DNA of 64,000 nucleotides, taken from NCBI GenBank assembly GCA_045613785.1, contig JAZLBQ010000007.1, positions 32,001 through 96,000 of the forward strand, read 5' to 3'. The position numbers and the translations under genes are program-made. This DNA comes from Candidatus Enterousia sp. GTDB lineage: Bacteria; Pseudomonadota; Alphaproteobacteria; Rs-D84. Shown piece by piece: positions 9,846 to 50,439 of the stretch; within the stretch, counting starts at the first letter, position 1, and each line of letters begins with the position of its first letter. The notes under the pieces were generated by a model. The model did not search any database and was not told the origin of the DNA. It saw only the letters and a program-made list of their open reading frames with translations.

Positions 9846-9848
9846 GAA

Positions 9849-11159: not shown

Positions 11160-11164
11160 AAACA

Positions 11165-12030: not shown

Positions 12031-12149
12031 AAATCTGGACAATTATAACTGTTTTGATATACTAGTAAACGTGCAAAGACATGGTGTTTTTGTGCTGCGG
12101 ATTTAATCCTAACTTGTCCTGCATTAACGGACTAAACAAGGGGTATTTT

Positions 12150-12623
12150 ATGTTAAAAGTTACGGTCAGGCCACCGACCACTGATACAGGGGCAATTCAA
12201 TGTTTGTTTGATAATCTGGAATTTTTAATCGCACGTCGTTCAGATGTTTTATCTGTTCCAGAATATTATAATGTTTTAATTCCAGGCTGTTATATTGCAG
12301 GGCTGTATATTGGCACGCAACAACTTTGTCTGGGTGATTTGCTATCATTATGGCAAGACGTTCCTTGGCATAGTGGCACCAGATATTATTTCAGCATAAT
12401 TGGTTCACCGCTAAGTGGCAGTAATCAGGCACGATATTGGGACGCTGCGACGCAGACAATCAATAACACCTATTATCAAGAGGCTTCACGTGGTTTTGCT
12501 GGGTTGTGGGTTCCGGCAAATAAACATATTCAGGAAAACACCGCACCAAAGGGTCTGCGAACACGCCCGTCTGGTATTGATATCAAAACCTTGCTAGACA
12601 AGTTAAAACAGTATTCCAGATAA
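12150..12623 (+). CDS. Hypothetical protein ending QYSR
   Basis: Start MLKVTV after AAGGGG RBS; GSPLSGSN motif. Confidence 0.6.
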   Translation: MLKVTVRPPTTDTGAIQCLFDNLEFLIARRSDVLSVPEYYNVLIPGCYIAGLYIGTQQLCLGDLLSLWQDVPWHSGTRYYFSIIGSPLSGSNQARYWDAATQTINNTYYQEASRGFAGLWVPANKHIQENTAPKGLRTRPSGIDIKTLLDKLKQYSR

Positions 12624-12628
12624 CTATT

Positions 12629-12868
12629 CTAGGCTTCTTCGGCCGTTGTGCACATTTTTGCAAAATCAACAATAGAAGTTTCTGTTGCTTTTATAATTTT
12701 TGCGATTGTGCTGCACGATGGCCAACGTGGTGTTCCGTCTGGGGAAAACTGTTTACTTTTATTAAAAGTGGTCGCATCCAGTCCACTAAACTTTGCTAGT
12801 CCTGAACAGGTCATTCCTTGTTTCTTTGCTAATTTATCAATTGCATTCCATAACGCTTTGTGGGTCAT
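12629..12868 (-). CDS. Stand-alone HTH regulator (N-terminal domain of alphaproteobacterial HTH-S24 repressors)
   Basis: MTHKALWNAIDKLA...SGLAKFSGLDATTFNKSK...RWPS; paralog at 38937. Confidence 0.85.
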   Translation of the reverse strand: MTHKALWNAIDKLAKKQGMTCSGLAKFSGLDATTFNKSKQFSPDGTPRWPSCSTIAKIIKATETSIVDFAKMCTTAEEA

Positions 12869-13016
12869 AACCGTTCCCTCCCTTTTTTAGTGTCGTGTTG
12901 TGGACAAGATTAAAAGAAAACCGGGATGAATTATTCCTAAAAAGTTATCAAAATGCAAGACAAAAAAGTGTTGGTTTATCAAGAAACAACCTGTGGTTGA
13001 AGTTGCTTAAAGGATT

Positions 13017-13895
13017 TTAAGCAATATCGGAAATGTTTTGGTTTGGGTTGTCCAGCACTAAATCCGCCTGAAATTGAGTTCTAAACCAGGTTCTTTGTCG
13101 TTTTGCATACTGGTTTGTTTTTACAATCCAGTTTTCAATACACTGATTTTCATCAATTTCACCACGTATAAATCTGCACAGTTGTGATGCTCCGATTGCA
13201 CGGCTTTCATCCCAGCCTGAAACAATGACGGCCTGTGCTTCGTTCATTGCACCACCGGATAACATTTGTGGGATTCTTGCGGCAATTCGTTCACGTAGTA
13301 TTTCGGTAGGTGGACAGATTAGGATTTTTTTTGCATTTGGGATAACTGCACCACTTCGTGGAGCGTTTTGAAATTCGATTAAATGTTTGCCTGTTTCTAA
13401 AAAGACCTCCAATGCACGTGCAACACGCTGTGGATCTGTTGCTTTAAATTCGTCAGGCAGCATTTTGCGTGCAGTATCGATATCATCTGCAACCATTTTT
13501 CGTGCCTGGTTGCGATTATGCTGTGATATATCTGGCATTGGTGAAATACCGTTTATCAGTGCGTTTATGTAATATCCTGTTCCGCCGACGAAAATAGGTG
13601 TTTTTCCATTTTGTATTGCCCAGTCGTATTCACGTCTGGCCAGATTCAGATAGTCAGCCACTGAAATCTGTTCGGTCAGTGGCAATATAGAAAACAGCCT
13701 GTATGGAACGCCGTCGATTTCATCAGATATTGGACGGCCTGCAAATGGGCTGGCTGAAATATTTTCAATACCACGATAAATCTGAACACTGTCGCAGTTT
13801 ATGATTACCCCATCAATTTGTTGTGCCAAGCGATGGGCAAAATCTGATTTGCCAGATGCGGTTGGTCCAGTAATGATAAAAGCACCTTGTTTCAT
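13017..13895 (-). CDS. miaA: tRNA dimethylallyltransferase
   Basis: GPTASGKS, INCDSVQIY, VGGTGYY, YAKRQRTWFR; start MKQGAF at 13895. Confidence 0.96.
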   Translation of the reverse strand: MKQGAFIITGPTASGKSDFAHRLAQQIDGVIINCDSVQIYRGIENISASPFAGRPISDEIDGVPYRLFSILPLTEQISVADYLNLARREYDWAIQNGKTPIFVGGTGYYINALINGISPMPDISQHNRNQARKMVADDIDTARKMLPDEFKATDPQRVARALEVFLETGKHLIEFQNAPRSGAVIPNAKKILICPPTEILRERIAARIPQMLSGGAMNEAQAVIVSGWDESRAIGASQLCRFIRGEIDENQCIENWIVKTNQYAKRQRTWFRTQFQADLVLDNPNQNISDIA

Positions 13896-15047: not shown

Positions 15048-16163
15048 TTAACGCATTTTTTGTTGATTCTGTGCAAATAACAACTGTGGTTGCGTTGTCA
15101 TTGTTGGTTGTTTTGCAAAATTTGGCGAGTCTAACCAAATATTGCGAGTGTCCTTATCCTTGTTAAAATATTTTGCGATTGCCATATTTACCAGCATTTC
15201 ACGTGGATACATACCATAAGGCATAGGTTCACCCAAATATTTTATCAGTTGTTTACTGCTCATTGATTTTATGCGTTCTAATTCTTTTGCATATTCCGTT
15301 CGTGCAATTCTTTTAATATCTGCCGCAAATACATTTGACATATCGTAAGAGCTGAACAGATCTCCAATTTTTTCACGGTTATGTCCAGCATAGATATGAC
15401 GTCCGTTTTTATTTGGAATGAACTTACCGTTTTCGATGCTGCCCCGTCCCAGGTATAAAATTGCATGAAATGTGTTACGGCTGCCATGGTATCTTGGAAC
15501 AATCAAAATAGTTCCAGGATTCAAATTGTCCGCATTAAAATTCTTGCCTTCGAAACGTTTTGTTATCTGTTTTTTTACAGAATCAGGTGTATTTGCCGCA
15601 ACTTTGTTTCTGGCCAAGAATTTATCTTTTGCAGCCTGAAAAGCTGAATCAGATTGATATACAGTGCCTTCGTAAATGCAATCAGCATATTCGTTATTAG
15701 CGTATTTGCTACGCATTTTTTCTTTGAACTGAGAACATGCTGTTCTTGCTCCTTCTGGGATAATGTCCAAAGTGTCGCCTGTTTCCGCCAGTGCACGTGA
15801 CAACTGTGTATATTGCCCCCAAACACAGTGATATCCCACTGGTGCACCAGGCAACTCACGACGCACAGCAGCACTGTATCCACGTTTACCCAACAGTGGG
15901 TTTAACTTAGCCTGCGAACGCAACATATTTTTTACATAAATGTCGCTCAGGTTTTCTGCTTTGTCGTCCAAGCAAGAATCAGTATCGGTCTTTTGAAAAT
16001 TATACATTTTAGACAGTGTGACAGAATTTGCCAATTCTAGCTGGTAATAACTTAGCTTTTCTTCATCATCTGAATTTCTGTCGGGTAAAGTGTTTGCGTT
16101 TGCAGAAAAAGTGCCTGATAATGTTCCGGCCAGCAAATACGGAACAATACTTTTAAATTTCAT
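15048..16163 (-). CDS. Exported hypothetical protein with possible papain-like (NlpC/P60/CHAP-like) Cys-His dyad; ends QKMR
   Basis: Signal-like MKFKSIVPYLLAGTLSGTFSANA; GYHCVWG and PGTILIVP...FHAILYLG. Confidence 0.55.
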   Translation of the reverse strand: MKFKSIVPYLLAGTLSGTFSANANTLPDRNSDDEEKLSYYQLELANSVTLSKMYNFQKTDTDSCLDDKAENLSDIYVKNMLRSQAKLNPLLGKRGYSAAVRRELPGAPVGYHCVWGQYTQLSRALAETGDTLDIIPEGARTACSQFKEKMRSKYANNEYADCIYEGTVYQSDSAFQAAKDKFLARNKVAANTPDSVKKQITKRFEGKNFNADNLNPGTILIVPRYHGSRNTFHAILYLGRGSIENGKFIPNKNGRHIYAGHNREKIGDLFSSYDMSNVFAADIKRIARTEYAKELERIKSMSSKQLIKYLGEPMPYGMYPREMLVNMAIAKYFNKDKDTRNIWLDSPNFAKQPTMTTQPQLLFAQNQQKMR

Positions 16164-16501
16164 TTTTTTTCCTCTTTGCAATCAATTAAACGGCCACACA
16201 ACAGCAGAAATAAAATTTCTGTATGATATGGATTCTTTATTTTTGTTTTTGTTTTGATTGGTTCACCGCAATAAAAATCAATTTGCGATGTACATTCAGA
16301 CGTTTAAAAGAACAAACGCCCCGACTTGCTGTAATTACCGTTACCCGCAGCCCGCCCCGTTTCCAGGGAACCAAAGTTTGTATATACAATATATAACAAA
16401 AACCTGTGTTTTGTCAAGGGGTGGGCTAAAAAATATTTGATTATTTGTGTAAATTTTTTTGTGTTGTTATTTTTTTTCAAATGTTTTAAATTTTGATTAC
16501 T

Positions 16502-25128: not shown

Positions 25129-25210
25129 ATGATTGTCCTTGTTTGACTTTACTAGTTTATCATCTCTTTTTACTGTTGCAAGATTTGTTCGTTTAAATAT
25201 TCTTATCTGG

Positions 25211-25321
25211 TTGATTTTTTTGTGTTTTTCTGGTATAATAGACCATACAAAGCGGACGGTTTTTTGCCGTCTTTTTTATCCCTGCCAAGGCAGGGCTTTT
25301 TTATTACCCAAGGATTTTATA
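25211..25321 (+). promoter_or_regulatory. Promoter followed by two tandem hairpin-U tracts upstream of the lysozyme gene
   Basis: TTGATT-17-TATAAT; gacggt..gccgtc-T6; ccctgcc aa ggcaggg-c-T6. Confidence 0.65.
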
Positions 25322-25825
25322 ATGATAATAAGCAACAAAGGAATAGAATTGTTAAAGTGCCTAGAGGGAGCGGTCAAAGTCCACGGCCGACACGTTATAT
25401 ACGACGATGCAACAGGTCGTCCAATTTGTCCAGGGGGCATATTGCCACCTGGTGCAACAATCGGTTATGGGCATCTGATAACGCCCGAGCAAGATTTTTC
25501 AGACGGCATAACAGAAGAGGTCGCAACAGAATTGCTGCGTTCAGATATTGCACAAGCAGAGCAAGTGGTTCAAGAAAGTGTCAAAATTCATTTAATGCAA
25601 AATCAGTATGATGCGCTGGTATTACTGGTGTTTAACATTGGTGGTGGAAACTTTCGAAAATCAACTGTTTTGAGATATATAAATAATCCGAAATATCGCA
25701 GTGTAAAATACCCAACGTTGTCTGATGCGTGGCTGGCGTGGAATCGGTGTCGTGGTCAGGTTGTGCCAGGGTTGACCAGACGCAGGCAGTGTGAACTGAA
25801 TATTTATTATGGAAAACAGAACTAA
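25322..25825 (+). CDS. Phage-type lysozyme (GH24)
   Basis: GIELLKCLEG, YDD, TIGYGH, NQYDALV.LVFNIG, GLTRRR. Confidence 0.9.
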   Translation: MIISNKGIELLKCLEGAVKVHGRHVIYDDATGRPICPGGILPPGATIGYGHLITPEQDFSDGITEEVATELLRSDIAQAEQVVQESVKIHLMQNQYDALVLLVFNIGGGNFRKSTVLRYINNPKYRSVKYPTLSDAWLAWNRCRGQVVPGLTRRRQCELNIYYGKQN

Positions 25826-38936: not shown

Positions 38937-39179
38937 ATGACTCACGAAGATGTATGGCGTGCCATCGAAAGATTTGCAACAGAACATGGAATGTCTTGTT
39001 CTGGATTGGCAAAGTGTAGCGGTCTGGATCCGACTACATTTAACAAAAGTAAGCGTTGGTCCAAAGAAGGTCAACCACGCTGGCCATCGACGAACAGCAT
39101 ATCCAAGATATTATCGTCAACAGGGGCGAAGATTCAAGACTTTACCAAGTTTATTGATTCAACTGACCCTGCACGATAA
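38937..39179 (+). CDS. Stand-alone HTH regulator, paralog of 12629-12868
   Basis: MTHEDVWRAIERFA...SGLDPTTFNKSKR...RWPSTNSISKIL. Confidence 0.88.
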   Translation: MTHEDVWRAIERFATEHGMSCSGLAKCSGLDPTTFNKSKRWSKEGQPRWPSTNSISKILSSTGAKIQDFTKFIDSTDPAR

Positions 39180-39260: not shown

Positions 39261-39686
39261 TTGTATATGTTATCAGGCGTTCGTATTTATACATCTGACT
39301 CCGTATGGCACCAGATTTTTACCGACTTTGGTGCGACGGTTATGGACGCACCAATAACTGGCTGCATAAATTTTGATGAAATTACCCCAAATTCTGTCAT
39401 TTCAGTGCTGGAATTAAAGTCTTTATTGTTAAATGCAACGGACACAGGCAGTGTTTTGCGTCTTGTGTTTGGCGGTGATGTTTCTTTGCCAAAAATTCAG
39501 GCTCAGATAGTTGCTTTTTTGCATAAATCAGGCGGAATGACGATTGCGGAATTAAAAAATGCACTGGGGTATGCACCTGATGTTGCCACGCATTCAATAG
39601 ACAACGCAATTTATTTATTGCGAAAAACATACGGTCGTTCTTTTATAAAAAACACAAACGGGGTTTACAGACTTGGCGAACTATAA
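39261..39686 (+). CDS. OmpR-type winged-helix protein without an intact receiver domain
   Basis: LGYAPDVATHSIDNAIYLLRK...GVYRL; start codon uncertain. Confidence 0.7.
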   Translation: MYMLSGVRIYTSDSVWHQIFTDFGATVMDAPITGCINFDEITPNSVISVLELKSLLLNATDTGSVLRLVFGGDVSLPKIQAQIVAFLHKSGGMTIAELKNALGYAPDVATHSIDNAIYLLRKTYGRSFIKNTNGVYRLGEL

Positions 39687-40338
39687 ATTATTATCTTTTG
39701 ATAAAATCCCCAGCACCCAGGATTATGCACTGGATTTGATTGCGTCTGGTCGTGCAACTGACCATACGGCGGTGCTGGCGGCGGCTCAGTCTGCAGGGCG
39801 TGGTCGTTTTCGTCGTTCGTGGGTTTCGCATCATGGAAATTTATATGTCAGTTTTATATTTTCTTCGCCTGAACGTGATGCTCGCTTATCGTATTGTGTT
39901 GCTGTGGCGGTGGCCGAAACAATTGCATCATTTGGTGTTCATCCAACCATAAAGTGGCCAAACGATATATTGGTTGATAATAAAAAGATTTCTGGGACTT
40001 TGATTGAATATTCTGGTTCGTTTGTTGTTGTTGGTATTGGAATCAATGTAAATTCAAATCCGACTGTTGAACGCTACAAAACGACCAAGATGGATAATTA
40101 TTCAGAAATTCCAATGAACGAATTACTAAATCGCTTGATGCGTAATTTAGACAAATGGCGGCGTGCTGATTTTCGGTCTGTTCGTGCACGGTGGATGGAA
40201 ATGGCTGCATGTATAAATCGTCCTGTTAAATACCAGGGTGAACCTGCGTTATTAGTTGGAATCAACGAAAATGGTGCATTGGTTTTGCGTCGTGATACTC
40301 GTTATTTACTGGTCTGGGGGGACGAGATTGTCGTTTGA
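39673..40338 (+). CDS. birA: Biotin-[acetyl-CoA-carboxylase] ligase (monofunctional)
   Basis: PSTQD, QSAGRGRFRRSWVS, KWPNDILV, KISGTLIE. Confidence 0.95.
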   Translation: MANYKLLSFDKIPSTQDYALDLIASGRATDHTAVLAAAQSAGRGRFRRSWVSHHGNLYVSFIFSSPERDARLSYCVAVAVAETIASFGVHPTIKWPNDILVDNKKISGTLIEYSGSFVVVGIGINVNSNPTVERYKTTKMDNYSEIPMNELLNRLMRNLDKWRRADFRSVRARWMEMAACINRPVKYQGEPALLVGINENGALVLRRDTRYLLVWGDEIVV

Positions 40339-40350
40339 AAAATTTTTTTC

Positions 40351-40486
40351 TTGACTTTTTGTCAAAAATATGATACCATACAACACATAAACAGCACAGA
40401 TTTTGCCCACAGCGTTAGTTGTGGCTTTTTTATTGCCCCACGTCCACGGACGTGGTTTTTTGTTTATAATCCCAAAAGGTAAAATA
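40351..40486 (+). promoter_or_regulatory. Promoter plus two tandem hairpin-U tracts upstream of the phage-like operon
   Basis: TTGACT-17-TACCAT; ccacagc gtta gttgtgg-c-T tract; ccacgtcc ac ggacgtgg-T6. Confidence 0.65.
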
Positions 40487-40903
40487 ATGCAAATGAGCAT
40501 AATAAATAATCCGGACACAACGGGCCGGTTGGCACTGCTATATAAAATTGCAAGAGTTGTCTATGCACAAACGGGAGCTGTCTCATTACCCTTGGTCGAA
40601 GCCTTTACATCAATGATAAAAAACATTGTTGATAAAACGGGAACGGACATTTCGATTGTGATTCAAGATTCGAATTTATTTCCCTCATTACGCAAATCAG
40701 ATATAAATCACAATCGGATATTTGTTTCGGCATCTAATCCAGGATTTCAAATGTGCTTGCGAACGGCAGGTCGAATTATGTCGGGCTGTTTAGGGGATTG
40801 TTGTTATGGTGCGACAAAATATCACTATGCGGATACAATACCTGATTGGGCATTATCACGTGGTTATATTGCAGACATTGATGGCATATTATTTTACACA
40901 TAA
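40487..40903 (+). CDS. Cell wall hydrolase (SleB/Hydrolase_2)-like, divergent
   Basis: IARVVYAQT...GATKYHYADTIPDWA...IDGILFY; the catalytic Glu position appears to be Gln. Confidence 0.6.
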   Translation: MQMSIINNPDTTGRLALLYKIARVVYAQTGAVSLPLVEAFTSMIKNIVDKTGTDISIVIQDSNLFPSLRKSDINHNRIFVSASNPGFQMCLRTAGRIMSGCLGDCCYGATKYHYADTIPDWALSRGYIADIDGILFYT

Positions 40904-40919
40904 TTAAAAAAGAAAATAC

Positions 40920-41117
40920 ATGAGAAATTTTTTCAAGGGTGGATATTTATCTGGATATCGCACCTATATAATTTCTGCAAGTGGGATTATATCTGCGGTT
41001 GCGGCATATCTGGTTGGAGATGCAGATTTATTTACAATGTTGCAGACAATATTTACATTAGCGGGGATATATTTTTTACGACGCTCTAATGAAAACAAAG
41101 GACAAGACAATGGATAA
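40920..41117 (+). CDS. Small holin-like membrane protein
   Basis: LSGYRTYI...two TM segments...GIYFLRR. Confidence 0.6.
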   Translation: MRNFFKGGYLSGYRTYIISASGIISAVAAYLVGDADLFTMLQTIFTLAGIYFLRRSNENKGQDNG

Positions 41118-41766
41118 AATACCAGAAAAATTTTTAAATTCTGATGGAACATTAAACAGTGAGATGTTGGTAAAATCATACACAGAATTGGAAAAGAAAT
41201 TAAACACAATGATATCGATTCCAACAGCAGATGATACGCCCGATATTCGTCAAAAATTTAATCGTGCAATTGGTGTTCCAGAAACGCCATCGCAATATCC
41301 AACAAATGAATTATACGACGACGAGAATTTGCGTCAGAAATTTTTTGATATTGGTTTAACATCAAAACAGGTAGAAAAGATTTATGACATTGCGAATGAA
41401 TTTTTAACACCGATTGTATCAGAAATTTTTTCTGTTCAAAATCAATCCAGTGCAATAAATGAATTAAGAAATTTTTTTGGCACAGAACAAAAAATGATAG
41501 ATGCCTTAACTGCGATTGAATCATTTGGAATACGTTTTTTGCCGCACGATGCATTTGTTGAATTATCGGCTACAGCCCAGGGAATTCAAAGCATTTATAA
41601 GATGATGCAAACAATGGAACCCAGTGTTCACACTGATAAAAATTCAAATGAAAATTTATCAGATTCTGATTTGCGACGCATGATGCAAGATCCAAAATAT
41701 TGGCGTGATAATGATACAGAATACATTCGCAAAATAGAAAACGGATTTAAAAAATTATATTCATAA
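41110..41766 (+). CDS. Phage capsid assembly (scaffolding) protein
   Basis: IPEKF...LVKSYTELEKKL; C-terminal MMQDPKYWRD...F.KLY. Confidence 0.75.
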   Translation: MDKIPEKFLNSDGTLNSEMLVKSYTELEKKLNTMISIPTADDTPDIRQKFNRAIGVPETPSQYPTNELYDDENLRQKFFDIGLTSKQVEKIYDIANEFLTPIVSEIFSVQNQSSAINELRNFFGTEQKMIDALTAIESFGIRFLPHDAFVELSATAQGIQSIYKMMQTMEPSVHTDKNSNENLSDSDLRRMMQDPKYWRDNDTEYIRKIENGFKKLYS

Positions 41767-41872
41767 ATATAAAAAATAACTTTTCTTCTTTACTAATTTT
41801 TTGATTTCAGATAAAATATGAATCAAGAACAAAACGAATTTGTTCTAACCAAACGTTAGAAGGAGAGAAGGG

Positions 41873-42334
41873 ATGGGATTTTTCTTTAGAAAATCTAAAA
41901 AAGTAGAAGAAGTAAAACCAGTTGTAAAACCAGCAACAAAGAAAGCAACTGCAAAAAAACCAGCTGCCAAGAAAGTGGCTGCAAAACCAGCTGCAAAAAA
42001 AGTAGCGGCAAAACCAGTTGCAAAAAAAGTAGCTGCAAAACCAGTTGCAAAGAAAGTGGCTGCAAAACCAGTTGCAAAAAAAGTGGCTGCAAAACCAGTT
42101 GCAAAGAAAGTAGCTGCAAAACCAGTTGCAAAAAAAGTAGCTGCAAAACCAGTTGCAAAGAAAGTAGCTGCAAAACCAGTTGCAAAAAAAGTAGCTGCAA
42201 AACCAGTTGCAAAGAAAGTAGCTGCAAAACCAGTCGCAAAAAAAGTGGTTGCAAAACCAGTCGCAAAAAAAGTGGTTGCAAAACCAGTTGCAAAGAAAGC
42301 TTGTGCGAAAAAAGCATGTGCTAAAAAGAAATAA
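41873..42334 (+). CDS. Histone H1-like (Hc2/BpH1-type) Lys/Ala-rich protein
   Basis: 12 KKV(A/V)AKP(V/A)A repeats; AGGAG RBS region; own terminator. Confidence 0.85.
   Translation: MGFFFRKSKKVEEVKPVVKPATKKATAKKPAAKKVAAKPAAKKVAAKPVAKKVAAKPVAKKVAAKPVAKKVAAKPVAKKVAAKPVAKKVAAKPVAKKVAAKPVAKKVAAKPVAKKVAAKPVAKKVVAKPVAKKVVAKPVAKKACAKKACAKKK
41969..42292 (+). repeat. 12 x 27-bp coding tandem repeat
   Basis: Unit aa(a/g)aaagt(a/g)gctgcaaaaccagttgca. Confidence 0.92.
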
Positions 42335-42543
42335 TAAATTCCCCACATCTGTGGGGATTTTTTTATAAAAGTATCAGTCAGATTATAAACATTGTCTGAC
42401 TGATATTTTTTTCTTTGGATAATCCTTGTTTTGGGGACCCATTACTTTTTATTTTTTTGGCACACGATGTGTATAACCAAAATACAAAATTTACCAGTGA
42501 TGCATTGCATCACTTTTAATTTTTATAACCAAAGGATTTTTAT

Positions 42544-42753
42544 ATGTCTGTTTCCATAGATAACGTATTTGTGAAACAATTCGAAGCGGATGTTCATTTG
42601 GCATATCAACAAATGGGCACAAAACTGCGTTCTACTGTTCGCAGTAAATCGGGTGTTATTGGTGCATCAACAACATTTCAAAAGGTCGGTCGTGGCACAG
42701 CCAGCACAAAATCACGTCATGGTATTGTTCCTGTGATGAATTTGAATCACTAA
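42544..42753 (+). pseudogene. Phage major capsid protein, N-terminal fragment only
   Basis: MSVSIDNVFVKQFEADVHLAYQQMGTKLRSTVR...FQKVG...KSRHG..P.MNL.H, then stop at 69 aa. Confidence 0.75.
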
Positions 42754-42926
42754 TAGATTACACACACCAGGTTATCCAGGATAAATTGGGGGGTGGGGCA
42801 GTATTGGGACTTTACAGAAATCTGCTGTCAGTTTTGGAAAATGCGCTGCCAAAATTGATAAATGATTATGGGCTGATAACAGAAACAGTTCCAAACGATA
42901 ATTGCGATGATTACGGAGTTTTATAA
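42750..42926 (+). pseudogene. Start-less 3' fragment of the gene preceding the terminase (small terminase position)
   Basis: Open frame LIDYTHQVIQDKLGG...DDYGVL-stop overlaps the terminase start; no ATG found upstream in frame. Confidence 0.5.
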
Positions 42927-43509
42927 ATTTCTGGACACCTGGAACGACCTGTTAGGATTCAAGACCCCAAAGCATCATCGTCAGATAATGAAGTTTCTAT
43001 ATGATGTTTTGTGTGAATCACCGCATCGTGGATTGCTGATGGCATTTCGTCATTCTGGTAAATCGACGGTTGTTGGTATATTTGCGGCATGTGTTTTATA
43101 TTTGCGTCCCCAGACCCGAATTTTGATTTTATCTGCGGAAACCGGGCTGTCATCACGAATGGTGTCGCATATCAGGCATATATTGGAAAATCATCCGTAT
43201 TGTCAATCAATGATTCCTGCGAATAAAAAAGAGTGGGCTAATGGTCGCATAACTATAAATCGTCCGATTGGCATTCGTGAACCGTCTGTAATTTGCCAAG
43301 GTATTCACGGCAATATAACCGGTATGCGTGCAGATTTAATAATTTGTGATGATATCGAAGTGCCAAACACATCAAACACCGCCCAAAAAAGGGAATTTTT
43401 GCGTGAACGCTTGCGTGAACTAGATTTTATACTATCGCCCAACGGTGCAATGATTTATATTGGCACACCGCATACACATGATACTATTTATCAAACGGGG
43501 CTTGACTAG
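42907..43509 (+). CDS. Phage terminase large subunit, ATPase half only
   Basis: LMAFRHSGKS (Walker A), ADLIICDDIE (Walker B), YIGTPH coupling motif, then stop. Confidence 0.85.
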   Translation: MITEFYKFLDTWNDLLGFKTPKHHRQIMKFLYDVLCESPHRGLLMAFRHSGKSTVVGIFAACVLYLRPQTRILILSAETGLSSRMVSHIRHILENHPYCQSMIPANKKEWANGRITINRPIGIREPSVICQGIHGNITGMRADLIICDDIEVPNTSNTAQKREFLRERLRELDFILSPNGAMIYIGTPHTHDTIYQTGLD

Positions 43510-44147
43510 TTCAGACTGCTGACAAACGTCCGCAATTTACCCAGCAGTTCACTGCCCGCATCGCCGAACATTGGCAGATAAGTTTCATATTCTGGCATAT
43601 CGGCTTGAACCTGTGCACGAACACGTTCAGATATTGGGTTAGTAATAATTTCATTTGCACTGTCCCATAATCTGTATGCGTTGTATGTTTGGATAACCAT
43701 ATTCCATTTAGGCATTAAATCAGGACGCTTGGCCAGGGCAGCACGAATACCTGGTTGCCATTCTTCGCCGAAATCTTGGACAATTGCCAGTCCCATAAAC
43801 ATATCCAATCCTGTTTGGTCTGGTGTAAAATTATTTAATCCTTCTTCCAGTTCGTTCCATTGATTTTTGGTCAGGCTAACCGAATGAATTTCTTCATTTG
43901 TCATCATGCCACCGTATGGCAATAACTCTGGTTCGATTGAATTGATATCTGTCTTACCGCTACGCAGATTTTCGATATGTTGCACCAACAATTTACCTGT
44001 TGGCATTTCTTTCAGCTCCTTGATAACATCATCAGAAGCCTCGTTCAAGAAAACAGGATTTACAGTTGCCCAGCCACCAATAATAACATGTTCTTGGCGA
44101 TACAGATTTAACAGTCTTAGTGCGGTTGTGCTGCTTTTTGTGTTCAT
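43506..44147 (-). CDS. Hypothetical protein, third gene of the dnaB operon
   Basis: 213-aa ORF with GGAGAG RBS. Confidence 0.7.
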   Translation of the reverse strand: MNTKSSTTALRLLNLYRQEHVIIGGWATVNPVFLNEASDDVIKELKEMPTGKLLVQHIENLRSGKTDINSIEPELLPYGGMMTNEEIHSVSLTKNQWNELEEGLNNFTPDQTGLDMFMGLAIVQDFGEEWQPGIRAALAKRPDLMPKWNMVIQTYNAYRLWDSANEIITNPISERVRAQVQADMPEYETYLPMFGDAGSELLGKLRTFVSSLN

Positions 44148-44170
44148 TTTCTCTCTCCATAAGATTGGGA

Positions 44171-45178
44171 TTATTCGATTACAATCATCACAACCTTGTG
44201 CATTGTTTGTGCAGTAATTTTTTCTTCTGGTGAAACGATTTGTCCGTAAACTTTACCTTTGGAATCGCTGCGAACACTAACGATTTGTGCAGATACAGAT
44301 GTTTCATCATCCAACGAATCAAAGTCTGCATCAAAAGCGACGGCTAAATCACCAGGCTGTGCCACAGCGGTTGAGTCTGCAAACACATATGATTTTTCAG
44401 GGATAAAACCGCCCAGGCGTTTAGTATTAGGCATAACTGCATAAACACCGGTTTTGCCTTCTAAAGTGCTTGGTGCGACAATCATTGTTTTATCAGATTT
44501 TTTGAAAGTGATTGCCTTGCCTGTAGGTGTTCCAAAGACTGGCACCAGTTTTTTACGTGCACTGTCATATAATTTTGCACCATACAAACTGCCGTGCATA
44601 TCAATGCCAGACATTGGATTTCCAGGTTCCAAGACAGATTTAACACGTTCTTTGACCTTGCTGATTTGTTTGTTTAATTCGCCAGATTTATACAAGTTTG
44701 CAATCTTGTCGAACAAATCTTCTGCCCCCAGTGCAAATGATTTTGCCAATGGTTCGATTTCGTTTTTATAGATTTCACGCTGACCGACTTCGATTTTATG
44801 GTAAACAGACAAAGTCATACCGGCGTCTTTTGCAGCCTGTGCAATAGTTTTACCTTTTTGCTGGCGGATTTTACGTAATCCGCTACCAAAGACCTTTAAA
44901 CCGCTGTCTTCGTTATCGTTCAATCGTCTTTTGATTTCGCTTTGCCATTGACCTGCGACATCATCAGATTCTTTGATGAAAATATCGGATAATTTGCAGC
45001 CCAAAATATTGCATATATTCAGCAGTTGTTTTTGGTTCAGACGTCTGACACCTTTTTCAATTTTTGAAACAGCAGACAAAGACAATCCGGCCTTGCGTGC
45101 CAATTCTGTCATCTTCATACCATTTGCCAATCGAATATTGCGAATATTATTTGGAAAGATAATTTCTTCTTGGGCCAT
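44171..45178 (-). CDS. Double XRE-HTH regulator with degenerate S24-like C-terminal domain
   Basis: Two HTH_3-like units (ELARKAGLSLSAVSKIEKG; AAKDAGMTLSVYHKIEVG); VPVFG...YAV...PGDLAV. Confidence 0.85.
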   Translation of the reverse strand: MAQEEIIFPNNIRNIRLANGMKMTELARKAGLSLSAVSKIEKGVRRLNQKQLLNICNILGCKLSDIFIKESDDVAGQWQSEIKRRLNDNEDSGLKVFGSGLRKIRQQKGKTIAQAAKDAGMTLSVYHKIEVGQREIYKNEIEPLAKSFALGAEDLFDKIANLYKSGELNKQISKVKERVKSVLEPGNPMSGIDMHGSLYGAKLYDSARKKLVPVFGTPTGKAITFKKSDKTMIVAPSTLEGKTGVYAVMPNTKRLGGFIPEKSYVFADSTAVAQPGDLAVAFDADFDSLDDETSVSAQIVSVRSDSKGKVYGQIVSPEEKITAQTMHKVVMIVIE

Positions 45179-45253
45179 TGCAAACTCCTAAATGACTATT
45201 ACTTGACAAAATAATAGTCAATTTTTAACAACGGTGCAAGGAAATAATTATAA

Positions 45254-46819
45254 TTACAATGGCATATCGTCTGGAATTGCATCAGGGTCGATTGCTGTTG
45301 GTTCGGCATAAGCGTCATCAACAAATCCTGAATTTGATTGAGTAGGTGCTGGCTGTGCAAAATCGTTTTCACCACGAGCTTCAAAATCGTTCAGGTTGTC
45401 GAACAAACTGTAATCTCCAAAGAACGCTGTTCGCACAGTTTCTGGTCGTCCATGACGGTTTTTACCGATGATGATATCAGCCTTACCACGTGCCCGTTCT
45501 AATCTGTTTTGCCAAGAATCATGTGCTGATGAATTTACATTATTTGACATACGTTCGTTTGGATCACGGTTTTGCAGATAGTATTCTTCACGATATGTAA
45601 ACATAACGATGTCAGCGTCCTGTTCAATAGATCCAGATTCACGCAAGTCTGACAACATTGGTCGTTTATCATCACGAGATTCCACACTACGTGACAGCTG
45701 AGACAATGCGATAACAGGCACATCTAATTCTTTGGCCAACATTTTTAGACCTCTGGTAATTTCAGAAATTTCCTGAACACGATTATCGCTGTGTTTTCCG
45801 CCTGGGGATGTCATCAACTGTAAATAGTCCAAAACAATCAGTGCGATTCCGCCGTGTTTGCGTGCCAACCGTCTGGCTCTAGTTCGCATCATAGGCACAG
45901 ACATACCTGGTGTATCATCGATGAACAGTGGCACTTTGCCGATTGCAGCAGAATATTGCGACATTTTCAAGAAATCTTCATCAGTCAATTTACCTTCACG
46001 CATTGCTGTTGCGGGAACTTTTGATTGCGAAGACAGCACACGTGCCGCCAGCTGTGAAGCCGACATTTCAAGGCTGAAAAACACAACAGCACCCTTGTAA
46101 TTTTTATTTGCTCGTCCGTATGCGATGGCATTTGCGGCATTAAACGCAATATTCATTGCCAATGTTGTTTTACCCATCGCAGGTCGTCCTGCAATAATAA
46201 TCAAGTCCGAATGATGCAACCCACTGATTGAACCGTCCAGTGCGTCCAAGCCAGTTGTCAGACCTGACAATTGACCGTCTGCCTTGTATGCGATTTCTGC
46301 TTCGTTCAATGCACTTGCCAATGCGGCAGAAATAGGTGTGACCTCACGCTCAGAAGCCCCTGTTGTTGCCATTTCGAACAGTTTTTGTTCTGCCATTTCG
46401 ATTTGGCGTGCCACAGGCGTGTCCAGATCCTCGACAAAAGCCTTGCCTACGATATCCTGACCCAAGGCGATTAAATCACGACGCATTGCGTGTTCATAAA
46501 CAATACGTCCATATTGCTCAACGTTGACAACGGTTGTTCCTGCACTGGCCAACTGGCTTAGATAATCAACACCACCAACAGATTCCAAAACGCCTTGTTG
46601 GTCCAGATAGTTTTTTGCAGTAATGATATCGAACGGGATACCGGCGGCAAACTGCCGATTTGCCAACTTAAAAATTTCTTGGTGTGCGGGGTGGGTAAAG
46701 TGTTCCGCCCGCAGGAATTCACCCACACGTTCCAACGCACGATTGTCCATCAGCACAGCGGCCAACACGGCCTGTTCTGCTTCCAAGTTTTCAGGCAATT
46801 TTTTGGGGGTAAAATCCAT
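45254..46819 (-). CDS. dnaB: Replicative DNA helicase
   Basis: NLEAEQAVL, AGRPAMGKT, FSLEMS, LDYLQL, LSQLSR, DLRESGSIEQDAD; start MDFTPK after AAGGA. Confidence 0.98.
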   Translation of the reverse strand: MDFTPKKLPENLEAEQAVLAAVLMDNRALERVGEFLRAEHFTHPAHQEIFKLANRQFAAGIPFDIITAKNYLDQQGVLESVGGVDYLSQLASAGTTVVNVEQYGRIVYEHAMRRDLIALGQDIVGKAFVEDLDTPVARQIEMAEQKLFEMATTGASEREVTPISAALASALNEAEIAYKADGQLSGLTTGLDALDGSISGLHHSDLIIIAGRPAMGKTTLAMNIAFNAANAIAYGRANKNYKGAVVFFSLEMSASQLAARVLSSQSKVPATAMREGKLTDEDFLKMSQYSAAIGKVPLFIDDTPGMSVPMMRTRARRLARKHGGIALIVLDYLQLMTSPGGKHSDNRVQEISEITRGLKMLAKELDVPVIALSQLSRSVESRDDKRPMLSDLRESGSIEQDADIVMFTYREEYYLQNRDPNERMSNNVNSSAHDSWQNRLERARGKADIIIGKNRHGRPETVRTAFFGDYSLFDNLNDFEARGENDFAQPAPTQSNSGFVDDAYAEPTAIDPDAIPDDMPL

Positions 46820-46838
46820 GACACAATCCTTTTCTTCT

Positions 46839-47132
46839 ATGCCCATAGTATATGAAAAAAACGCTTTTTCAACGCCTTTTTTATCGGGATATAAAACCTT
46901 GAAAATTCCGATAGTTAGTCCTGAGGGCGAACCTGCATGGCCTGAATTGTTTCCACTTTCCAGGATTCATCAATTACAAGAAACAGTTGGACATCGCCAC
47001 TTTTCGTCTCAGATGATGCTGGAATTTGTTCCGCCAAATCGCATTCGCCTAGATCCTGGAAGTTTGCATTTTTACGACAGCGAATTTGACCGTCGGTCGG
47101 CAAATCAGTCTTGGAACATTTGCGTCAGATAA
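46839..47132 (+). pseudogene. Continuation of the terminase large subunit, truncated
   Basis: PFLSGYKTLKIPI..EGEPAWPELF...FSSQMML...RLDP; start at ATG 46839 or TTG 46899; similarity is lost at about 47104. Confidence 0.7.
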
Positions 47133-47257
47133 CAATTGAACGTCCAATTGGTTCAAACGCCACTGATAATGAATTACGCTGGTTTGCTGCTCAGTCAGCA
47201 CTGGTCCGTCACATAGAATCTCTTGTTTCCCAGGGCAGGGGGTGTTCAAATGTTTAA
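47099..47257 (+). pseudogene. Start-less C-terminal part of a Bbp19-like phage protein
   Basis: GKSVLEHLRQITIERP...ELRWFAAQSALVRHIESLV; in-frame TGA at 47087 and no start codon. Confidence 0.6.
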
Positions 47258-47486
47258 CCTGGAATTTTTACGCAACAGTTGGTTTTTGATTGCATTTATT
47301 GGTGGGCTGATTTATTGGGCAGCTCGCCAAGATTTATCTGTTGCGGAACACGAACACTTTGACAGTCGTATAACCTCGCTGGAAAATCGCACGACGATAC
47401 TGGAAACTGGTATTGGTCAGATTCAGATAAAAATAGACGACATCAAAGAAGATTTAAATTTAATAAAAAGTGCCGTTATAAAGTAA
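47250..47486 (+). CDS. Small TM plus coiled-coil phage-like protein
   Basis: MFNLEFLRNSWFLIAFIGGLIYW...RITSLENRTTILE. Confidence 0.65.
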   Translation: MFNLEFLRNSWFLIAFIGGLIYWAARQDLSVAEHEHFDSRITSLENRTTILETGIGQIQIKIDDIKEDLNLIKSAVIK

Positions 47487-47517
47487 AGCACGGCCAAAAC
47501 TATAAAGGAAAAGAATT

Positions 47518-48030
47518 ATGGCACGCAGCATCAGATTCCGCCGTGGAACGGCAGTTCAGCATGAAACATTTACCGGTGCCCAGGGGGAAATCACAGTTGA
47601 CACGACAAACAACACCCTACGGGTTCACGATGGTTTAACGCTTGGTGGCACCATCTTGGCGAAACGCAGTGAAATTCCAGATTTTTCTGGGGTTGACTAC
47701 GTTATTGCCTGGCAAAACCCCAGCCCAGAAAACAATTACACCTGGTATCGGAAATATAAATCTGGTTGGGTTGAACAGGGGGGCAGTGATTTTACCCCCA
47801 GAACCATAAATGCAGGCACGGGAACAGCCTGGTATGTCCCAATGCCGGTCCCGATGAGTGATACAAAATACAACATTCAAATATCATTTGACAACGGGAA
47901 CTTGGTCCCTGCTGTGAATAATAACAATCTGACAACCACAACCCAGGTTTATTTGGGCTGTAAAAACCAGGGCAGTGCAAATGTCACCAGCCAGGTTCAA
48001 TATTGGTATGTCTGCGGAATATCTGCATAA
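47518..48030 (+). CDS. Short tail-fibre-like protein (Mtd N-terminal motif plus WYRKY.SGWVEQGG domain)
   Basis: IRFRRGT..H..FTGAQGEITVDT....LRVHDG...GG. Confidence 0.8.
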   Translation: MARSIRFRRGTAVQHETFTGAQGEITVDTTNNTLRVHDGLTLGGTILAKRSEIPDFSGVDYVIAWQNPSPENNYTWYRKYKSGWVEQGGSDFTPRTINAGTGTAWYVPMPVPMSDTKYNIQISFDNGNLVPAVNNNNLTTTTQVYLGCKNQGSANVTSQVQYWYVCGISA

Positions 48031-48055: not shown

Positions 48056-49642
48056 TTACTTTAATTTTATACCTGTCCATTCCGTAACATTTTTAATTTG
48101 TTCGTCATTTTTGCTTTCTGCGACGTTTGTTGCGGCTAATGTCATCTCGTTAGTCAAACGCAATTCACGTGCAGGATTTACATAAACACACTTGAAATCA
48201 GACGGCACAACATTTATCAACGTCTGGTTTTTAACAGCCATTGCCCAGAACCAAACATCGTCCGCCAACGGTGCCAACTTTTGAAACATTGGCTGATTTA
48301 AGACGTCTTTATCCAATACGTGTGGCGGATACAAAACACCGCCAACCCCGGTCAAGAAGTTCAGATAAGACGGTGTTTTATTTTTCGTCTGATGTTCCCA
48401 CTTGTTATACGGGCGCAAATTCCCACGTTTATCAAACAATATTTTATGCGCACGCAGGCAATGAATCTGATTTGGTGTTTTCAGGTATGCATTGTATAAT
48501 TTTTCAACCAACCAATCAGGATAATAAATATCGTCATCAACGGTTATTATTATATCATTTGGAAATTCCTTTAATGACGGCACCAGTTTTGTATAAGACC
48601 GAATATCATCACACCATTTGATTGTTAAACCCTTGTCCAGAAACTGCAATACAGATTCCGGTAAATCTGCTTCTTTGTTTGGGAATTTATCCGCACCCAA
48701 CCACAAAACAATCATATCGGGTTTTAATGTCTGGGTCAGCAAAGAATACAATGTAAAATGAATATCAGACATCCGTTGTGGAAATGACGTCAACGACATA
48801 ATAATCCGTGGATTGCGTCCTGAATTTTTATCAATGCCAACATCGTTAAAATTTTTAATCTGTTCGTCAATCGCATTGCGGTCAATGTGCGGAATTGAAT
48901 CAATCTGTGATTGCCGCCAATTTGCCAACGTCCATGGATTAGAACGGTCCCACGTAATTCCACGTTTTACAATTTGTCCCGGGTTGCCGGCAATAACAAC
49001 ATTTGTTTCCACATAGTTCCGATAGCAAACAGCCCCACCTGAAACGATTGAATTATCGTGAATGTTTGCACGCTTGGTTATTCTGACGCCTTCGCCCACC
49101 CAAACATGATTACCAATAACAACAGGACCAGTTGGTGTATTCAAAATTTCCAATGTTTTCACATCCAGCACCGAATGACCATCCGATGCCCATATGTTAA
49201 TCGAATTTGAAAACATACAATCGTTTCCAATTATGCAACCACTGCGTTCTGGCAGTTTTATTGTTGTTCCATAAAATGTTGAACCTCGTCCAATTTTACA
49301 AATCTGTCCATCACCACAACGAATGTCGATATTTACATTATAAAACTTTGGCGAAGAACCGATTTCAACCAACGCATTATCATTTTCAATCGTGATTGCT
49401 GAATTTGTTGCCACGATTGGCAATTCCAGTTTAACTGTATTGTTATTACCACGGATTTTGATTTTCAAACCGTTTATGGTTTCGTTTTTACGCATTGGCC
49501 GTTCAACACCATTTTCAACAATGATAATCCGGTTGTTTTGACCAACGTTTTTCTGTGTCTTGCGATAACTGATAATCTTAACCCCTAACAAATAAATATG
49601 TCGGCGGCCATTTGGGTATCTGACTTTTTTGAAAATCTTCAT
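48056..49642 (-). CDS. Fusion of a hexapeptide acetyltransferase and a GT-A glycosyltransferase
   Basis: SDGH, IGNHVWVGE, AGNP; then SLTSFPQR, SYTKLVP, TVDDDIYY, GVGGVLYPP, DDVWF. Confidence 0.85.
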   Translation of the reverse strand: MKIFKKVRYPNGRRHIYLLGVKIISYRKTQKNVGQNNRIIIVENGVERPMRKNETINGLKIKIRGNNNTVKLELPIVATNSAITIENDNALVEIGSSPKFYNVNIDIRCGDGQICKIGRGSTFYGTTIKLPERSGCIIGNDCMFSNSINIWASDGHSVLDVKTLEILNTPTGPVVIGNHVWVGEGVRITKRANIHDNSIVSGGAVCYRNYVETNVVIAGNPGQIVKRGITWDRSNPWTLANWRQSQIDSIPHIDRNAIDEQIKNFNDVGIDKNSGRNPRIIMSLTSFPQRMSDIHFTLYSLLTQTLKPDMIVLWLGADKFPNKEADLPESVLQFLDKGLTIKWCDDIRSYTKLVPSLKEFPNDIIITVDDDIYYPDWLVEKLYNAYLKTPNQIHCLRAHKILFDKRGNLRPYNKWEHQTKNKTPSYLNFLTGVGGVLYPPHVLDKDVLNQPMFQKLAPLADDVWFWAMAVKNQTLINVVPSDFKCVYVNPARELRLTNEMTLAATNVAESKNDEQIKNVTEWTGIKLK

Positions 49643-49656: not shown

Positions 49657-50439
49657 TTATGCAATATTGCTCGGTTCTCCATATTGTTTAATATATTGTT
49701 CATATTTTTCTTTATATGCAGCTTCTTCTGGTCTAAAACTGTGCCACGAACCAACCCAATACACATTTTTGCGTTTTACTTGTGCAGGATTGCCTGCAAT
49801 CATTACATTATTGCCCGGCATTTCCTTTGTAACGACGGCTTTTGTTGCAACTATACAGTCGTTACCAATTTTTGCTTTTTTAAGAATTGTTGCCCCTGCA
49901 CCAATCCATACGTGGTCGCCAATGATTAAATCGTGTGGGGTGTCAACATATTCGTGTGTTTCTGAATCAAAAACCAAATGTGGAATTTCGCCCAGTCTGA
50001 ACAAAATATCCTTGGACATCAGACAGCGTTTACCAACGTGCAGTTTGCAATGATGTTGTTCAACCAAGATTTCTATAGCTACTATACATGCCCCTTCATC
50101 AATAAATATTTCAGAATTACTTATTTCTATATGGTTTCCAATATTGATGTGAACTGACTGGATTTCGCTTGATGGCATAATATGGATTTTATTATTGTTT
50201 CCACGGATATGAATATTCAGTTTTCCTCCACGCACAGATTTTCCAACAGTTATTTTATTATTATTTCCATAAATTGCGACACGGGCACGAATGGTTTCGT
50301 TATCAATATCGATTTGATTGTTTACTCCGGCATTAAGGATAATATTTTTTTGCTTTTTGCGATAAGAAAAAACCTTTATTCCTAAAAAGTAGATATGTCT
50401 GCGACCATTTTTGAAACGCACTTTTTTGAAAATTTTCAT
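49657..50439 (-). CDS. Hexapeptide-repeat O-acetyltransferase
   Basis: IGDHVWIGAGATILK, IAGNPA. Confidence 0.88.
   Translation of the reverse strand: MKIFKKVRFKNGRRHIYFLGIKVFSYRKKQKNIILNAGVNNQIDIDNETIRARVAIYGNNNKITVGKSVRGGKLNIHIRGNNNKIHIMPSSEIQSVHINIGNHIEISNSEIFIDEGACIVAIEILVEQHHCKLHVGKRCLMSKDILFRLGEIPHLVFDSETHEYVDTPHDLIIGDHVWIGAGATILKKAKIGNDCIVATKAVVTKEMPGNNVMIAGNPAQVKRKNVYWVGSWHSFRPEEAAYKEKYEQYIKQYGEPSNIA

Follow-up and report, generated by a model that had tools for sequence, protein, structure and literature searches.

The window analyzed here, 64,000 nucleotides of a Candidatus Enterousia genome (contig JAZLBQ010000007.1, positions 32,001 to 96,000 of the forward strand), contains between 40.4 and 48.0 kb a series of phage-like head, tail, packaging, and lysis genes that is very probably a decaying copy of an ancient, chromosomally fixed set of particle genes, derived from a T7-like podovirus of the type without an RNA polymerase (RNAP; HTVC010P/Hodr-type), inherited vertically, and kept under purifying selection. 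An initial annotation made from the letters of the window had proposed a vertically inherited, previously undescribed podovirus-type gene transfer agent (GTA)-like system that is partly deleted in this strain; the phage-like genes that it listed are all present and all on the + strand (Table 1), and they are not a product of chance, since hundreds of related genomes carry them as well. The genome of the window (G000) is a metagenome-assembled genome (MAG) of 1,044,118 bp in 26 contigs that is 96.5% complete (3.5% of markers missing). Enterousia is placed in the order Rs-D84, all members of which have reduced genomes, without respiration, the tricarboxylic acid cycle, or many transporters, and are probably partner-dependent (PMC12306168); the available part of this 2025 Enterousia paper makes no mention of phage, capsid, or gene transfer. 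Families of open reading frames (ORFs) were identified by Pfam and PHROG profile searches and orthology to relatives by tblastn, and 20 kb around the ATPase piece of the large terminase was fetched from 20 genomes, giving 12 same-genus loci and loci of five other families. The closest species, G015, serves as the reference for the deletions, with G015rc denoting its reverse-complemented coordinates.

The relatives, in which the element is intact, carry most of the evidence. The ATPase piece was found in 38 of 41 genomes, G000 included (30/30 of high quality and 24/24 of the same genus), and its strong matches, in 37 relatives and G000, are all stand-alone frames of 198 to 228 aa, three of which show one in-frame TAG within the matched span. 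A capsid profile matched 293 of 328 Rs-D84 genomes, among them 211 of 224 of high quality, in 28 of 30 genera. All 12 same-genus loci share one layout, which runs from HTH80 (an 80-aa helix-turn-helix (HTH) protein), a 141-aa gene, and birA through the hydrolase, holin, scaffold, and HC2-like genes to the capsid (~275 aa), a 77-aa gene, tube A, tube B, a 115-aa gene, the fiber adaptor, and the terminase ATPase piece, and then, beyond an opposite-strand block of a 213-aa gene, a regulator, and dnaB, to the terminase nuclease piece, portal, Bbp19, the membrane protein, and the Mtd fiber. The tube proteins are T7-type (phrog_394 and phrog_376) and the portal belongs to PF12236. In the five other families the same genes are found in a rearranged order, and cellular genes such as ftsZ and amiC lie among them. 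All 20 fetched loci have the capsid and both tube genes, 19 have the nuclease piece, and 18 the portal; of the two without a portal match, one is a contig of just 9 kb and the other a stretch whose end is at ftsZ. Intact capsid and portal genes, which the initial annotation had proposed to look for, thus do exist in relatives.

Within the genus, pairwise Nei-Gojobori ratios of nonsynonymous to synonymous divergence (dN/dS) are 0.01 to 0.07 for the capsid, 0.02 to 0.06 for the portal, and 0.02 to 0.08 for the ATPase piece, and 0.07 to 0.13 for the tube genes, 0.09 to 0.18 for the nuclease, and 0.09 to 0.28 for the scaffold, while the core genes give 0.02 to 0.07 (dnaB) and 0.03 to 0.15 (birA). 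The whole range for element genes, 0.01 to 0.28, compared with 0.02 to 0.15 for dnaB, birA, and the HTH regulator, indicates selection and not neutral decay. Maximum likelihood trees of 11 species, one from concatenated element proteins (2,401 columns) and one from neighboring core proteins (1,527 columns), have six of eight internal splits in common, including all with support of at least 90, and the conflict between them concerns three deep, weakly supported placements. The claim of vertical inheritance therefore stands as far as locus and gene order (the same in 12 of 12 loci) and the well-supported splits are concerned, but not in its strictest form, as the approximately unbiased (AU) test rejects an identical topology. 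That Rs-D84 bacteria, and many other Alphaproteobacteria, would have inherited this gene set vertically is part of the best explanation of the distribution of these genes.

The features of an autonomous mobile element that had been reported missing from the window are indeed missing. Only two matches to the tyrosine recombinase family PF00589 exist in the genome, both on other contigs; a repeat search between 37000 and 50000 gave the HC2 array and imperfect pairs of 14 to 28 nt only, so that the candidate attachment (att) sites are just short, imperfect, chance-sized direct repeats; and no phage polymerase is found among the Pfam matches of the window ORFs. Pfam and PHROG searches of the clusters of G015 and G028 and of the window returned no integrase, replication genes, recognizable small terminase, or internal core (ejection) proteins, and what a T7-like podovirus would bring with it, its own replication and early genes, a small terminase, and core proteins, is found neither in these clusters nor in their flanks. 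Control by the SOS response is unsupported in this genome: the site GTTC-N7-GTTC, which we take to be the SOS box consensus, does not occur in the window (0 compared with 1.6 expected by chance), and there is no Peptidase_S24/LexA-type match anywhere in G000. Capsid-forming satellites such as phage-inducible chromosomal islands are likewise a poor match to an element that has no integrase or att repeats, a fixed locus, and its own tail genes.

The RcGTA gene set is siphovirus-like, with an HK97-type capsid, and judged from that known set, with no alignment, the element has neither such a capsid nor a siphovirus-like tail cluster. It shares with RcGTA-type elements (Rhodogtaviriformidae; Rhodobacter, Caulobacter) the possession of head, tail, packaging, and lysis genes in the absence of replication or integration genes, vertical inheritance under purifying selection, scattering among host genes, and occurrence in Alphaproteobacteria. 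It differs in its PF19821 capsid, T7-type scaffold, tubes A and B, PF12236 portal, and T7-type terminase nuclease, which together describe a short-tailed particle, and in a terminase that comes in two pieces, and its activity is a prediction from genes. Phage derivation, vertical inheritance, purifying selection, and scattered genes are described as general properties of GTAs in the available text of PMC12946183, and the element corresponds to them in that its phage-derived genes serve structure, packaging, and lysis while any replication, integration, or lysogeny-control module of its own is absent, and in its vertical inheritance under purifying selection, with the reservation from the AU test. 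The same source (Nat Commun 2026) presents FpGTA of Faecalibacterium prausnitzii as the first podovirus-like GTA-like element; as far as described there, FpGTA is also from the gut, podovirus-like, split over more than one locus, and equipped with holin and endolysin, but its host belongs to the phylum Bacillota and it comes with experimental packaging data, and its likeness to the element is one of description. FpGTA is one podovirus-like precedent, and we found no account of the present element in the literature on Enterousia, Rs-D84, or podovirus-type GTAs, in keeping with the original statement that it was previously undescribed. In the case of the RcGTA remnants of reduced endosymbionts (George et al. 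2022, PMC9254644), particle genes are likewise under purifying selection in very small alphaproteobacterial genomes for reasons that are described as unclear in the accessible part of that paper; there, however, the genes are RcGTA homologs of which head genes were kept and the tail was lost, while Rs-D84 relatives keep the tail and belong to another gene family. Finally, an Mtd N-terminal fiber domain and a Bbp19-like protein are common to the element and Bordetella phage BPP-1, a link made through Pfam family names and not by comparison with the phage itself; unlike BPP-1, the window has no reverse transcriptase or diversity-generating cassette among the Pfam matches of its ORFs, the part of the genome that was searched for them.

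The Rs-D84 element family is best read, from its sequences, as a new, podovirus-derived, GTA-like particle system that its hosts keep. The T7-type scaffold, capsid, tubes, portal, and terminase and the lack of integrase and replication genes support the podovirus-type GTA-like system first proposed, and from this gene content we infer that the element may form particles, package DNA at random, and transfer it. A subpopulation of cells with an intact element would assemble small short-tailed heads, which the two-piece terminase would fill with host DNA without sequence specificity; the undetected small terminase is the sole hint toward random packaging. The hydrolase and holin would lyse the producer cell, and the fiber would bind kin cells, which would take up the DNA, possibly via ComEC and DprA, so that the intact element would work as a gene transfer agent. 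ComEC and DprA were found in five of five genomes tested (G000 and four relatives, element-less ones included), with the ComEC-type gene of G000 at C4:94490-95308 and the DprA-type gene at C24:79200-79820, and their presence is only permissive for DNA delivery.

A bolder version, which we put forward tentatively and would not be surprised to see fail, is that the element is an active GTA of independent, podoviral ancestry with a two-protein packaging motor, and that genomes of ~1 Mb retain it because recombination by way of its particles counteracts the genetic decay to which small, dependent populations are subject. If this were true, G000, with a partly deleted element, and G159, a species from which it is fully deleted, would be natural knock-outs for asking what a GTA is for. 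To our knowledge, no more than a handful of independent domestications have given rise to known GTAs, and those that function in Alphaproteobacteria belong to the RcGTA type or are BaGTA. The present set, derived from a podovirus and conserved throughout an order of ~1 Mb gut bacteria and apparently outside it as well, would add a GTA lineage, with the unusual traits of a large terminase in two pieces and of essential cell genes (dnaB, ftsZ) lodged inside the cluster. About 1.5% of a reduced genome is spent on particle genes, which argues for a strong benefit.

In G000 itself the set has been interrupted by two internal deletions, exactly as the initial annotation had it in calling the system partly deleted in this strain. 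In blastn comparisons with G015rc, window positions 40000-42753 align to 2562-5283, 42745-47089 to 9248-13603, and 47121-48006 to 15528-16423. The first gap has removed capsid residues 70 to 275, the 77-aa gene, tube A, tube B, the 115-aa gene, and adaptor residues 1 to 122, and the second has removed most of the nuclease (two thirds), the portal, and residues 1 to 16 of Bbp19. A tblastn search recovered no missing gene elsewhere in the G000 assembly, and with capsid, tube, and portal genes deleted no particle can be built in G000. The ends of junction 1 share just ~4 bp (AATC), which is too little to name a deletion mechanism.

The genes left behind show signs of relaxed constraint. When lineage-specific changes were counted in G000 and its sister species G015, with G024 and G006 as outgroups, element genes had 81 residue changes specific to G000 and 34 specific to G015, compared with 47 and 69 in core genes (Fisher p=6e-6), while synonymous changes were balanced (65/59 in element and 117/106 in core genes). 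The excess is carried by the scaffold (25 vs 7), holin (8 vs 1), adaptor stub (8 vs 1), hydrolase (14 vs 9), and Bbp19 (9 vs 4). From the deletions and this excess we infer that the loss of function is genuine and took place fairly recently. Five same-genus genomes at least 91% complete have no capsid match (G254, G059, G090, G159, and G122). Two of them, G254 and G059, keep portal and ATPase piece and were set aside as losses, the missing capsid being probably an assembly gap, as was G090, in which dnaB is also missing from the assembly. G159 and G122 keep dnaB and have no capsid, portal, or ATPase piece, and the locus of G159 (a sister-genus-level species, 97% complete; L215, C14:1-16000) reads dnaB, regulator, 213-aa gene, ~3.9 kb, birA, 141-aa gene, HTH80, with no element gene and with the ~3.9 kb in the place of the head and tail genes. 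By gene content, then, G000 is midway between the intact state of most species and the complete loss in G159. The window thus shows the element being lost, with mapped deletion ends and a measurable relaxation of the leftovers, and intact sister species, G000, and element-less species form a natural series in which the role of the element can be studied.

Several observations weigh against a maintained, vertically inherited particle system that has recently failed in this strain. Thirteen of the 224 high-quality Rs-D84 genomes have no capsid match, which implies that the element is dispensable. The dN/dS values are rough, as dS runs from 0.4 to >2 and is partly saturated, and AU tests reject the core topology when run on the element data (p=0.031) and the element topology when run on the core data (p=0.0004). 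Particle formation, random packaging of host DNA, and transfer are predictions from gene content; that ejection proteins and a small terminase are absent would fit a function unrelated to DNA delivery equally well, and ComEC and DprA, which 10 and 11 of 14 control genomes also have, are common and persist in element-less genomes. As to the decay, the test for relaxation is based on one sister species and two outgroups, there is no excess in the capsid stub (0 vs 0), ATPase piece (8 vs 6), membrane protein (2 vs 1), or fiber (1 vs 2), and the deletions are seen in a 26-contig MAG assembly alone and not in reads, with 3.5% of markers missing.

Among the alternatives, the one that survives best, though we consider it unlikely, is that the family is kept by its hosts for a role other than gene transfer, such as interaction with a host or partner, killing of competitors, programmed lysis with release of DNA, or exclusion of related phages. 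The undetected ejection proteins and small terminase count in favor of such a role, the same doubt has been raised for RcGTA-type genes in reduced endosymbionts in the part of George et al. 2022 (PMC9254644) available, and Rs-D84 bacteria are without many pathways and probably dependent on partners, as described in the portion of PMC12306168 at hand; capsid, portal, and both terminase pieces are, however, among the most constrained genes, which suggests that, in contrast to tailocins, selection acts on DNA packaging as such, and ComEC and DprA are retained, common though these genes are. It is distinctly improbable that the surviving ATPase piece, membrane protein, and Mtd fiber are kept in G000 for a new, particle-independent job: these three genes show no lineage-specific excess, and Mtd-like paralogs lie at two other sites in the genome, but the counts are small, a recent loss would leave too little time for decay (by a rough estimate the excess of ~58 residue changes would account for only a minor part of the branch that followed the divergence from G015), and the ATPase piece has been lost altogether in G159. 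We see still less reason to think that the two deletions are assembly or binning artefacts, for example by collapse of strain variants, and that the real organism has an intact element. The fragmented and incomplete MAG leaves some room for this, as does the 100% identity of the capsid stub protein to that of relatives, but the two junctions fall within a single contig of 142.5 kb, with uninterrupted homology to G015 on either side, no other contig carries the missing genes, the residue excess is absent from core genes and is not expected from assembly error, and a fully element-less species (G159) exists with the same locus. An ordinary dead prophage, that is, a recent podovirus integration decaying neutrally that came to lie beside dnaB and the histone-like gene by accident, is very improbable here and already refuted at the level of the family, since, however much the G000 region by itself looks like debris with its capsid, nuclease, and Bbp19 stubs and its excess of residue changes in leftover genes, the locus is the same in all 12 same-genus species, the genes extend across six families with a capsid in nearly all high-quality genomes, dN/dS is low, integrase and flanking repeats are absent nearby, and the strongly supported nodes agree.

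Table 1. Element genes, neighboring cellular genes, and deletion junctions in the window
Feature	Position	Strand	Evidence or remark
HTH80, 80-aa Cro/C1-type HTH protein	38937..39179	+	PF13443 7.8e-4, below Pfam cut-off
141-aa unknown protein, then birA-like biotin-protein ligase	39261..40338	+	PF03099 4e-19; left-flank core genes
Hydrolase, SleB-type-like	40403..40903	+	Likely start Met29 at 40487; named via orthologs in relatives
Holin-like membrane protein, 65 aa	40920..41117	+	Two hydrophobic stretches and charged tail, read from sequence
Scaffold, T7-type capsid assembly protein	41089..41766	+	PF05396 2.7e-10; phrog_3742 1e-12
HC2-like Lys/Ala-repeat histone-like protein	41873..42334	+	PF07382 5e-6, below cut-off; between scaffold and capsid
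Major capsid stub, 69 aa (residues 1-69 of ~275)	42544..42753	+	PF19821 positions 1-66/293, 7.6e-17
Fiber adaptor remnant (T7 gp17 N-terminal-like), last 71 residues	42711..42923	+	tblastn to G015 adaptor residues 123-193, 79% identity, 6e-33
Deletion junction 1	42745..42753	.	3,964 bp of G015 missing
Large terminase ATPase piece, 200 aa, intact	42907..43509	+	phrog_38 positions 272-459, 4e-42; PF03237 4.8e-6
213-aa unknown protein	43506..44147	-	First gene of block between terminase pieces; no family match
Regulator, 335 aa, two XRE-type HTH domains	44171..45178	-	PF01381 2e-21, two stretches
DnaB replicative helicase	45254..46846	-	PF03796 6e-99; PF00772 1e-30
Large terminase nuclease stub, ~first 90 of ~270 residues, then out-of-frame tail	46818..47132	+	phrog_38 positions 468-539, 1.7e-5
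Deletion junction 2	47090..47120	.	1,924 bp of G015 missing
Bbp19-like remnant, residues ~17-70	47099..47260	+	tblastn to G015 Bbp19, 57% identity, 1.3e-19
Small transmembrane (TM) protein, N-terminal membrane helix and coiled-coil-like tail	47223..47486	+	phrog_736 (unknown function) weak, 1.3e-3
Mtd_N-type tail fiber, 170 aa	47518..48030	+	PF18454 4.3e-15; phrog_9648 9e-11

Several of the element genes in Table 1 are identified through their orthologs. Pfam searches of the Bbp19, adaptor, and nuclease stubs and of the hydrolase of the window gave nothing for the fragments themselves. The hydrolase has no Pfam or PHROG family match in this copy; its ortholog in G028 matches PF07486 at 1.1e-5, just under the cut-off, and the endolysin family phrog_938 at 3.9e-9, and those in two high-GC relatives, L162 and L163, match PF07486 at 6e-18 and 5e-14. 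Terminator-like hairpins lie near the start of the hydrolase gene, at 40407-40455. Neither the holin nor the TM protein has a significant Pfam or PHROG match in the window, and no ortholog of either in any relative has a family match. The product of 40920-41117 is called holin-like solely on account of its size and two hydrophobic stretches, and its gene is kept beside the hydrolase in the 12 same-genus loci and in several other-family loci. The TM protein, which is 92% identical to that of G015 with a dN/dS of 0.02 to 0.11, is possibly spanin-like. The capsid stub also matches the major head protein family phrog_3437, and is 100% identical at the protein level to its counterparts in G015, G023, and G024 (dN=0 and dS=0.64 relative to G015); a look-up with the capsid in the ESM Atlas gave generic phage-capsid clusters only, with no host range. 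The full adaptor of G015 matches the tail protein family phrog_1640 at 1.5e-12 and its intact Bbp19 matches PF25181 at 1.9e-13. The nuclease stub is the C-terminal part of an ORF at 46623-47132, and in tblastn covers residues 1 to 169 of a 357-aa ORF of G015; the full nuclease piece matches PF22530 (T7 terminase RNaseH-like) at 4.5e-4 in G015, below the Pfam cut-off, and at 1.7e-8 in G028.

The Mtd-type fiber is 88% identical to that of G015, with a C-terminal part that differs between species, and the Mtd match is limited to its N-terminal 36 to 40 residues. Two further Mtd-fiber-like copies exist in G000, at C21:2168-2590 (- strand) and, just past the end of the window, at C7:96090-96263 (- strand), one of which is 69% identical to the G015 fiber over 146 residues and the other 57% over the first 58. 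The lysozyme, which had been placed elsewhere from the start, is a PF00959 gene at 25133-25825 (+ strand, 3e-29), ~15 kb upstream of the element. Homologs of it were found in the element-bearing G013 and G024, and none in G159 and G122, which are element-less, or in G028, which belongs to another family. The sample is very small, but this phage-type lysozyme may be a dispersed part of the lysis equipment that disappears along with the element.

As had been observed at the outset, a histone-like gene and the dnaB block interrupt the phage genes, the HC2-like gene and the only dnaB lying among them. The HC2-like gene, which is of a cellular type, is made up of 12.7 copies of a 27-nt tandem repeat, and its G015 copy matches PF07382 above the cut-off, at 1.6e-13. 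The dnaB match is the sole one in the whole 1.04 Mb assembly, which identifies it as the helicase of the cell itself rather than as phage cargo. The block could in principle have been a phage replication module, a candidate that we rejected because it holds the only dnaB in the genome and because dnaB stays with its two neighbors in the element-less G159 and G122. Of these neighbors, the 213-aa gene is present in 12 of 12 same-genus loci, the dual-HTH regulator has a dN/dS of 0.05 to 0.10, and both are retained in G159 and G122. The sequence CATG at 46817-46820 holds an alternative start of dnaB (Met10, - strand) as well as the start of the nuclease piece (+ strand), so that the two divergent genes share four bases; the dnaB alignment starts at residue 10 in 7 of 11 relatives. 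To the left of the element, the 141-aa gene and birA are syntenic in 11 to 12 same-genus loci. HTH80 is found at the same position in 11 same-genus loci, is 85 to 95% identical among them with a dN/dS of 0.01 to 0.02, and is present in the element-less G159; this conserved upstream neighbor is a possible regulator.

In every Rs-D84 genome examined, separate ORFs encode the ATPase and the nuclease of the large terminase, which in T7-type terminases form a single polypeptide. Where the pieces are adjacent, in three loci of other families (L044, L046, and L051), they lie in different frames with a spacer of 237 to 380 bp. In four of four high-GC relatives (L162, L163, L167, and L209), by contrast, the terminase is one uninterrupted ORF, which indicates that the split is derived within Rs-D84. 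An intron or intein that would join the pieces was considered and rejected, as the pieces lie in different frames and the three spacers have no Rfam match at E<=0.01 (the Rfam matches within these loci, two tRNAs and one weak, unrelated small RNA (sRNA), are all outside the spacers), and the three opposite-strand genes that separate the pieces in Enterousia are further evidence against it. The spacers themselves (L044 at ~9494-9732, - strand; L046 at ~9396-9690, - strand; L051 at 10366-10746) contain a near-consensus sigma-70 promoter (in L046, TTGACA, 17 nt, TATAAT) and one or two hairpins with CU-rich, anti-Shine-Dalgarno-like loops and a U-run after each; in the three families the spacer looks like a small RNA gene. 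In the ATPase piece of the window we saw by eye what we take to be the Walker A, Walker B, and coupling motifs.

By capsid, the nearest phages are the Pelagibacter podophage EXVC031P Hodr, at 45% identity, and uncultured contigs at ~60%. One of the latter, L153 (IMG/VR, 35-kb contig, capsid 62% identical), encodes RusA, an HTH protein, an Sf6-type small terminase, and internal proteins of 748 and 1,036 aa, and is, by its gene content, a true phage relative of the element. The structural module of such RNAP-less T7-like phages (Hodr, L153) is the same as that of the element, the order in L153 and MT838907.1 being portal, Bbp19, scaffold, capsid, a 77-aa protein, tube A, and tube B; unlike L153, the element is without RusA, the HTH protein, the small terminase, and the large internal proteins, and is chromosomally fixed and interleaved with dnaB, ftsZ, and amiC. 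The family to which the element belongs is probably domesticated much more widely than in Rs-D84: the capsid has matches at E<=1e-40 in 32 of 199 other Alphaproteobacteria, an even sample of the class, and the high-GC contigs L162, L163, L167, and L209 have much of the same reduced gene set. In two of these (L162 at 4918-9450 and L163 at 6699-9080; IMG/VR, GC 69 to 72%) a GGDEF-EAL sensor gene lies between scaffold and capsid, joined in L162 by a gene for a methyl-accepting chemotaxis protein, which extends the interleaving with host genes to distant lineages.

Sequences of this family also occur in collections of viral sequences. The close relative MT838907.1 (L132), deposited as 'Bacteriophage sp.' from human feces, is a 5,084-bp sequence with a GC content of 51% that runs from the portal to the start of tube B and has a capsid 62% identical to that of the element. 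Some 20 'viral' contigs of IMG/VR at 76 to 90% capsid identity include fragments of Enterousia chromosomes; the two that were examined, L133 and L145 (GC 41 to 43%), are both chromosome fragments, and one has a dnaB-sized gap between the terminase pieces. Element fragments filed as viral contigs, and a close relative filed as a bacteriophage, can mislead virome surveys.

The presence of ftsZ in the particle cluster of several other families draws attention to its state in Enterousia. No match to FtsZ/tubulin (PF00091) was found in G000 or in 24 other Enterousia genomes at least 90% complete, while 14 of 16 genomes of other Rs-D84 families have one, and FtsZ is not mentioned in the available part of PMC12306168; Enterousia may divide without FtsZ. 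Finally, downstream of the fiber, two adjoining genes at 48056-49642 and 49657-50439 (both on the - strand) encode proteins with a near-identical N-terminus of ~30 residues that diverge thereafter, the 260-aa product of the pair having hexapeptide-transferase repeats, and glycosyltransferase-like genes (TOD1/MUCI70-like and RgpF-like) follow.

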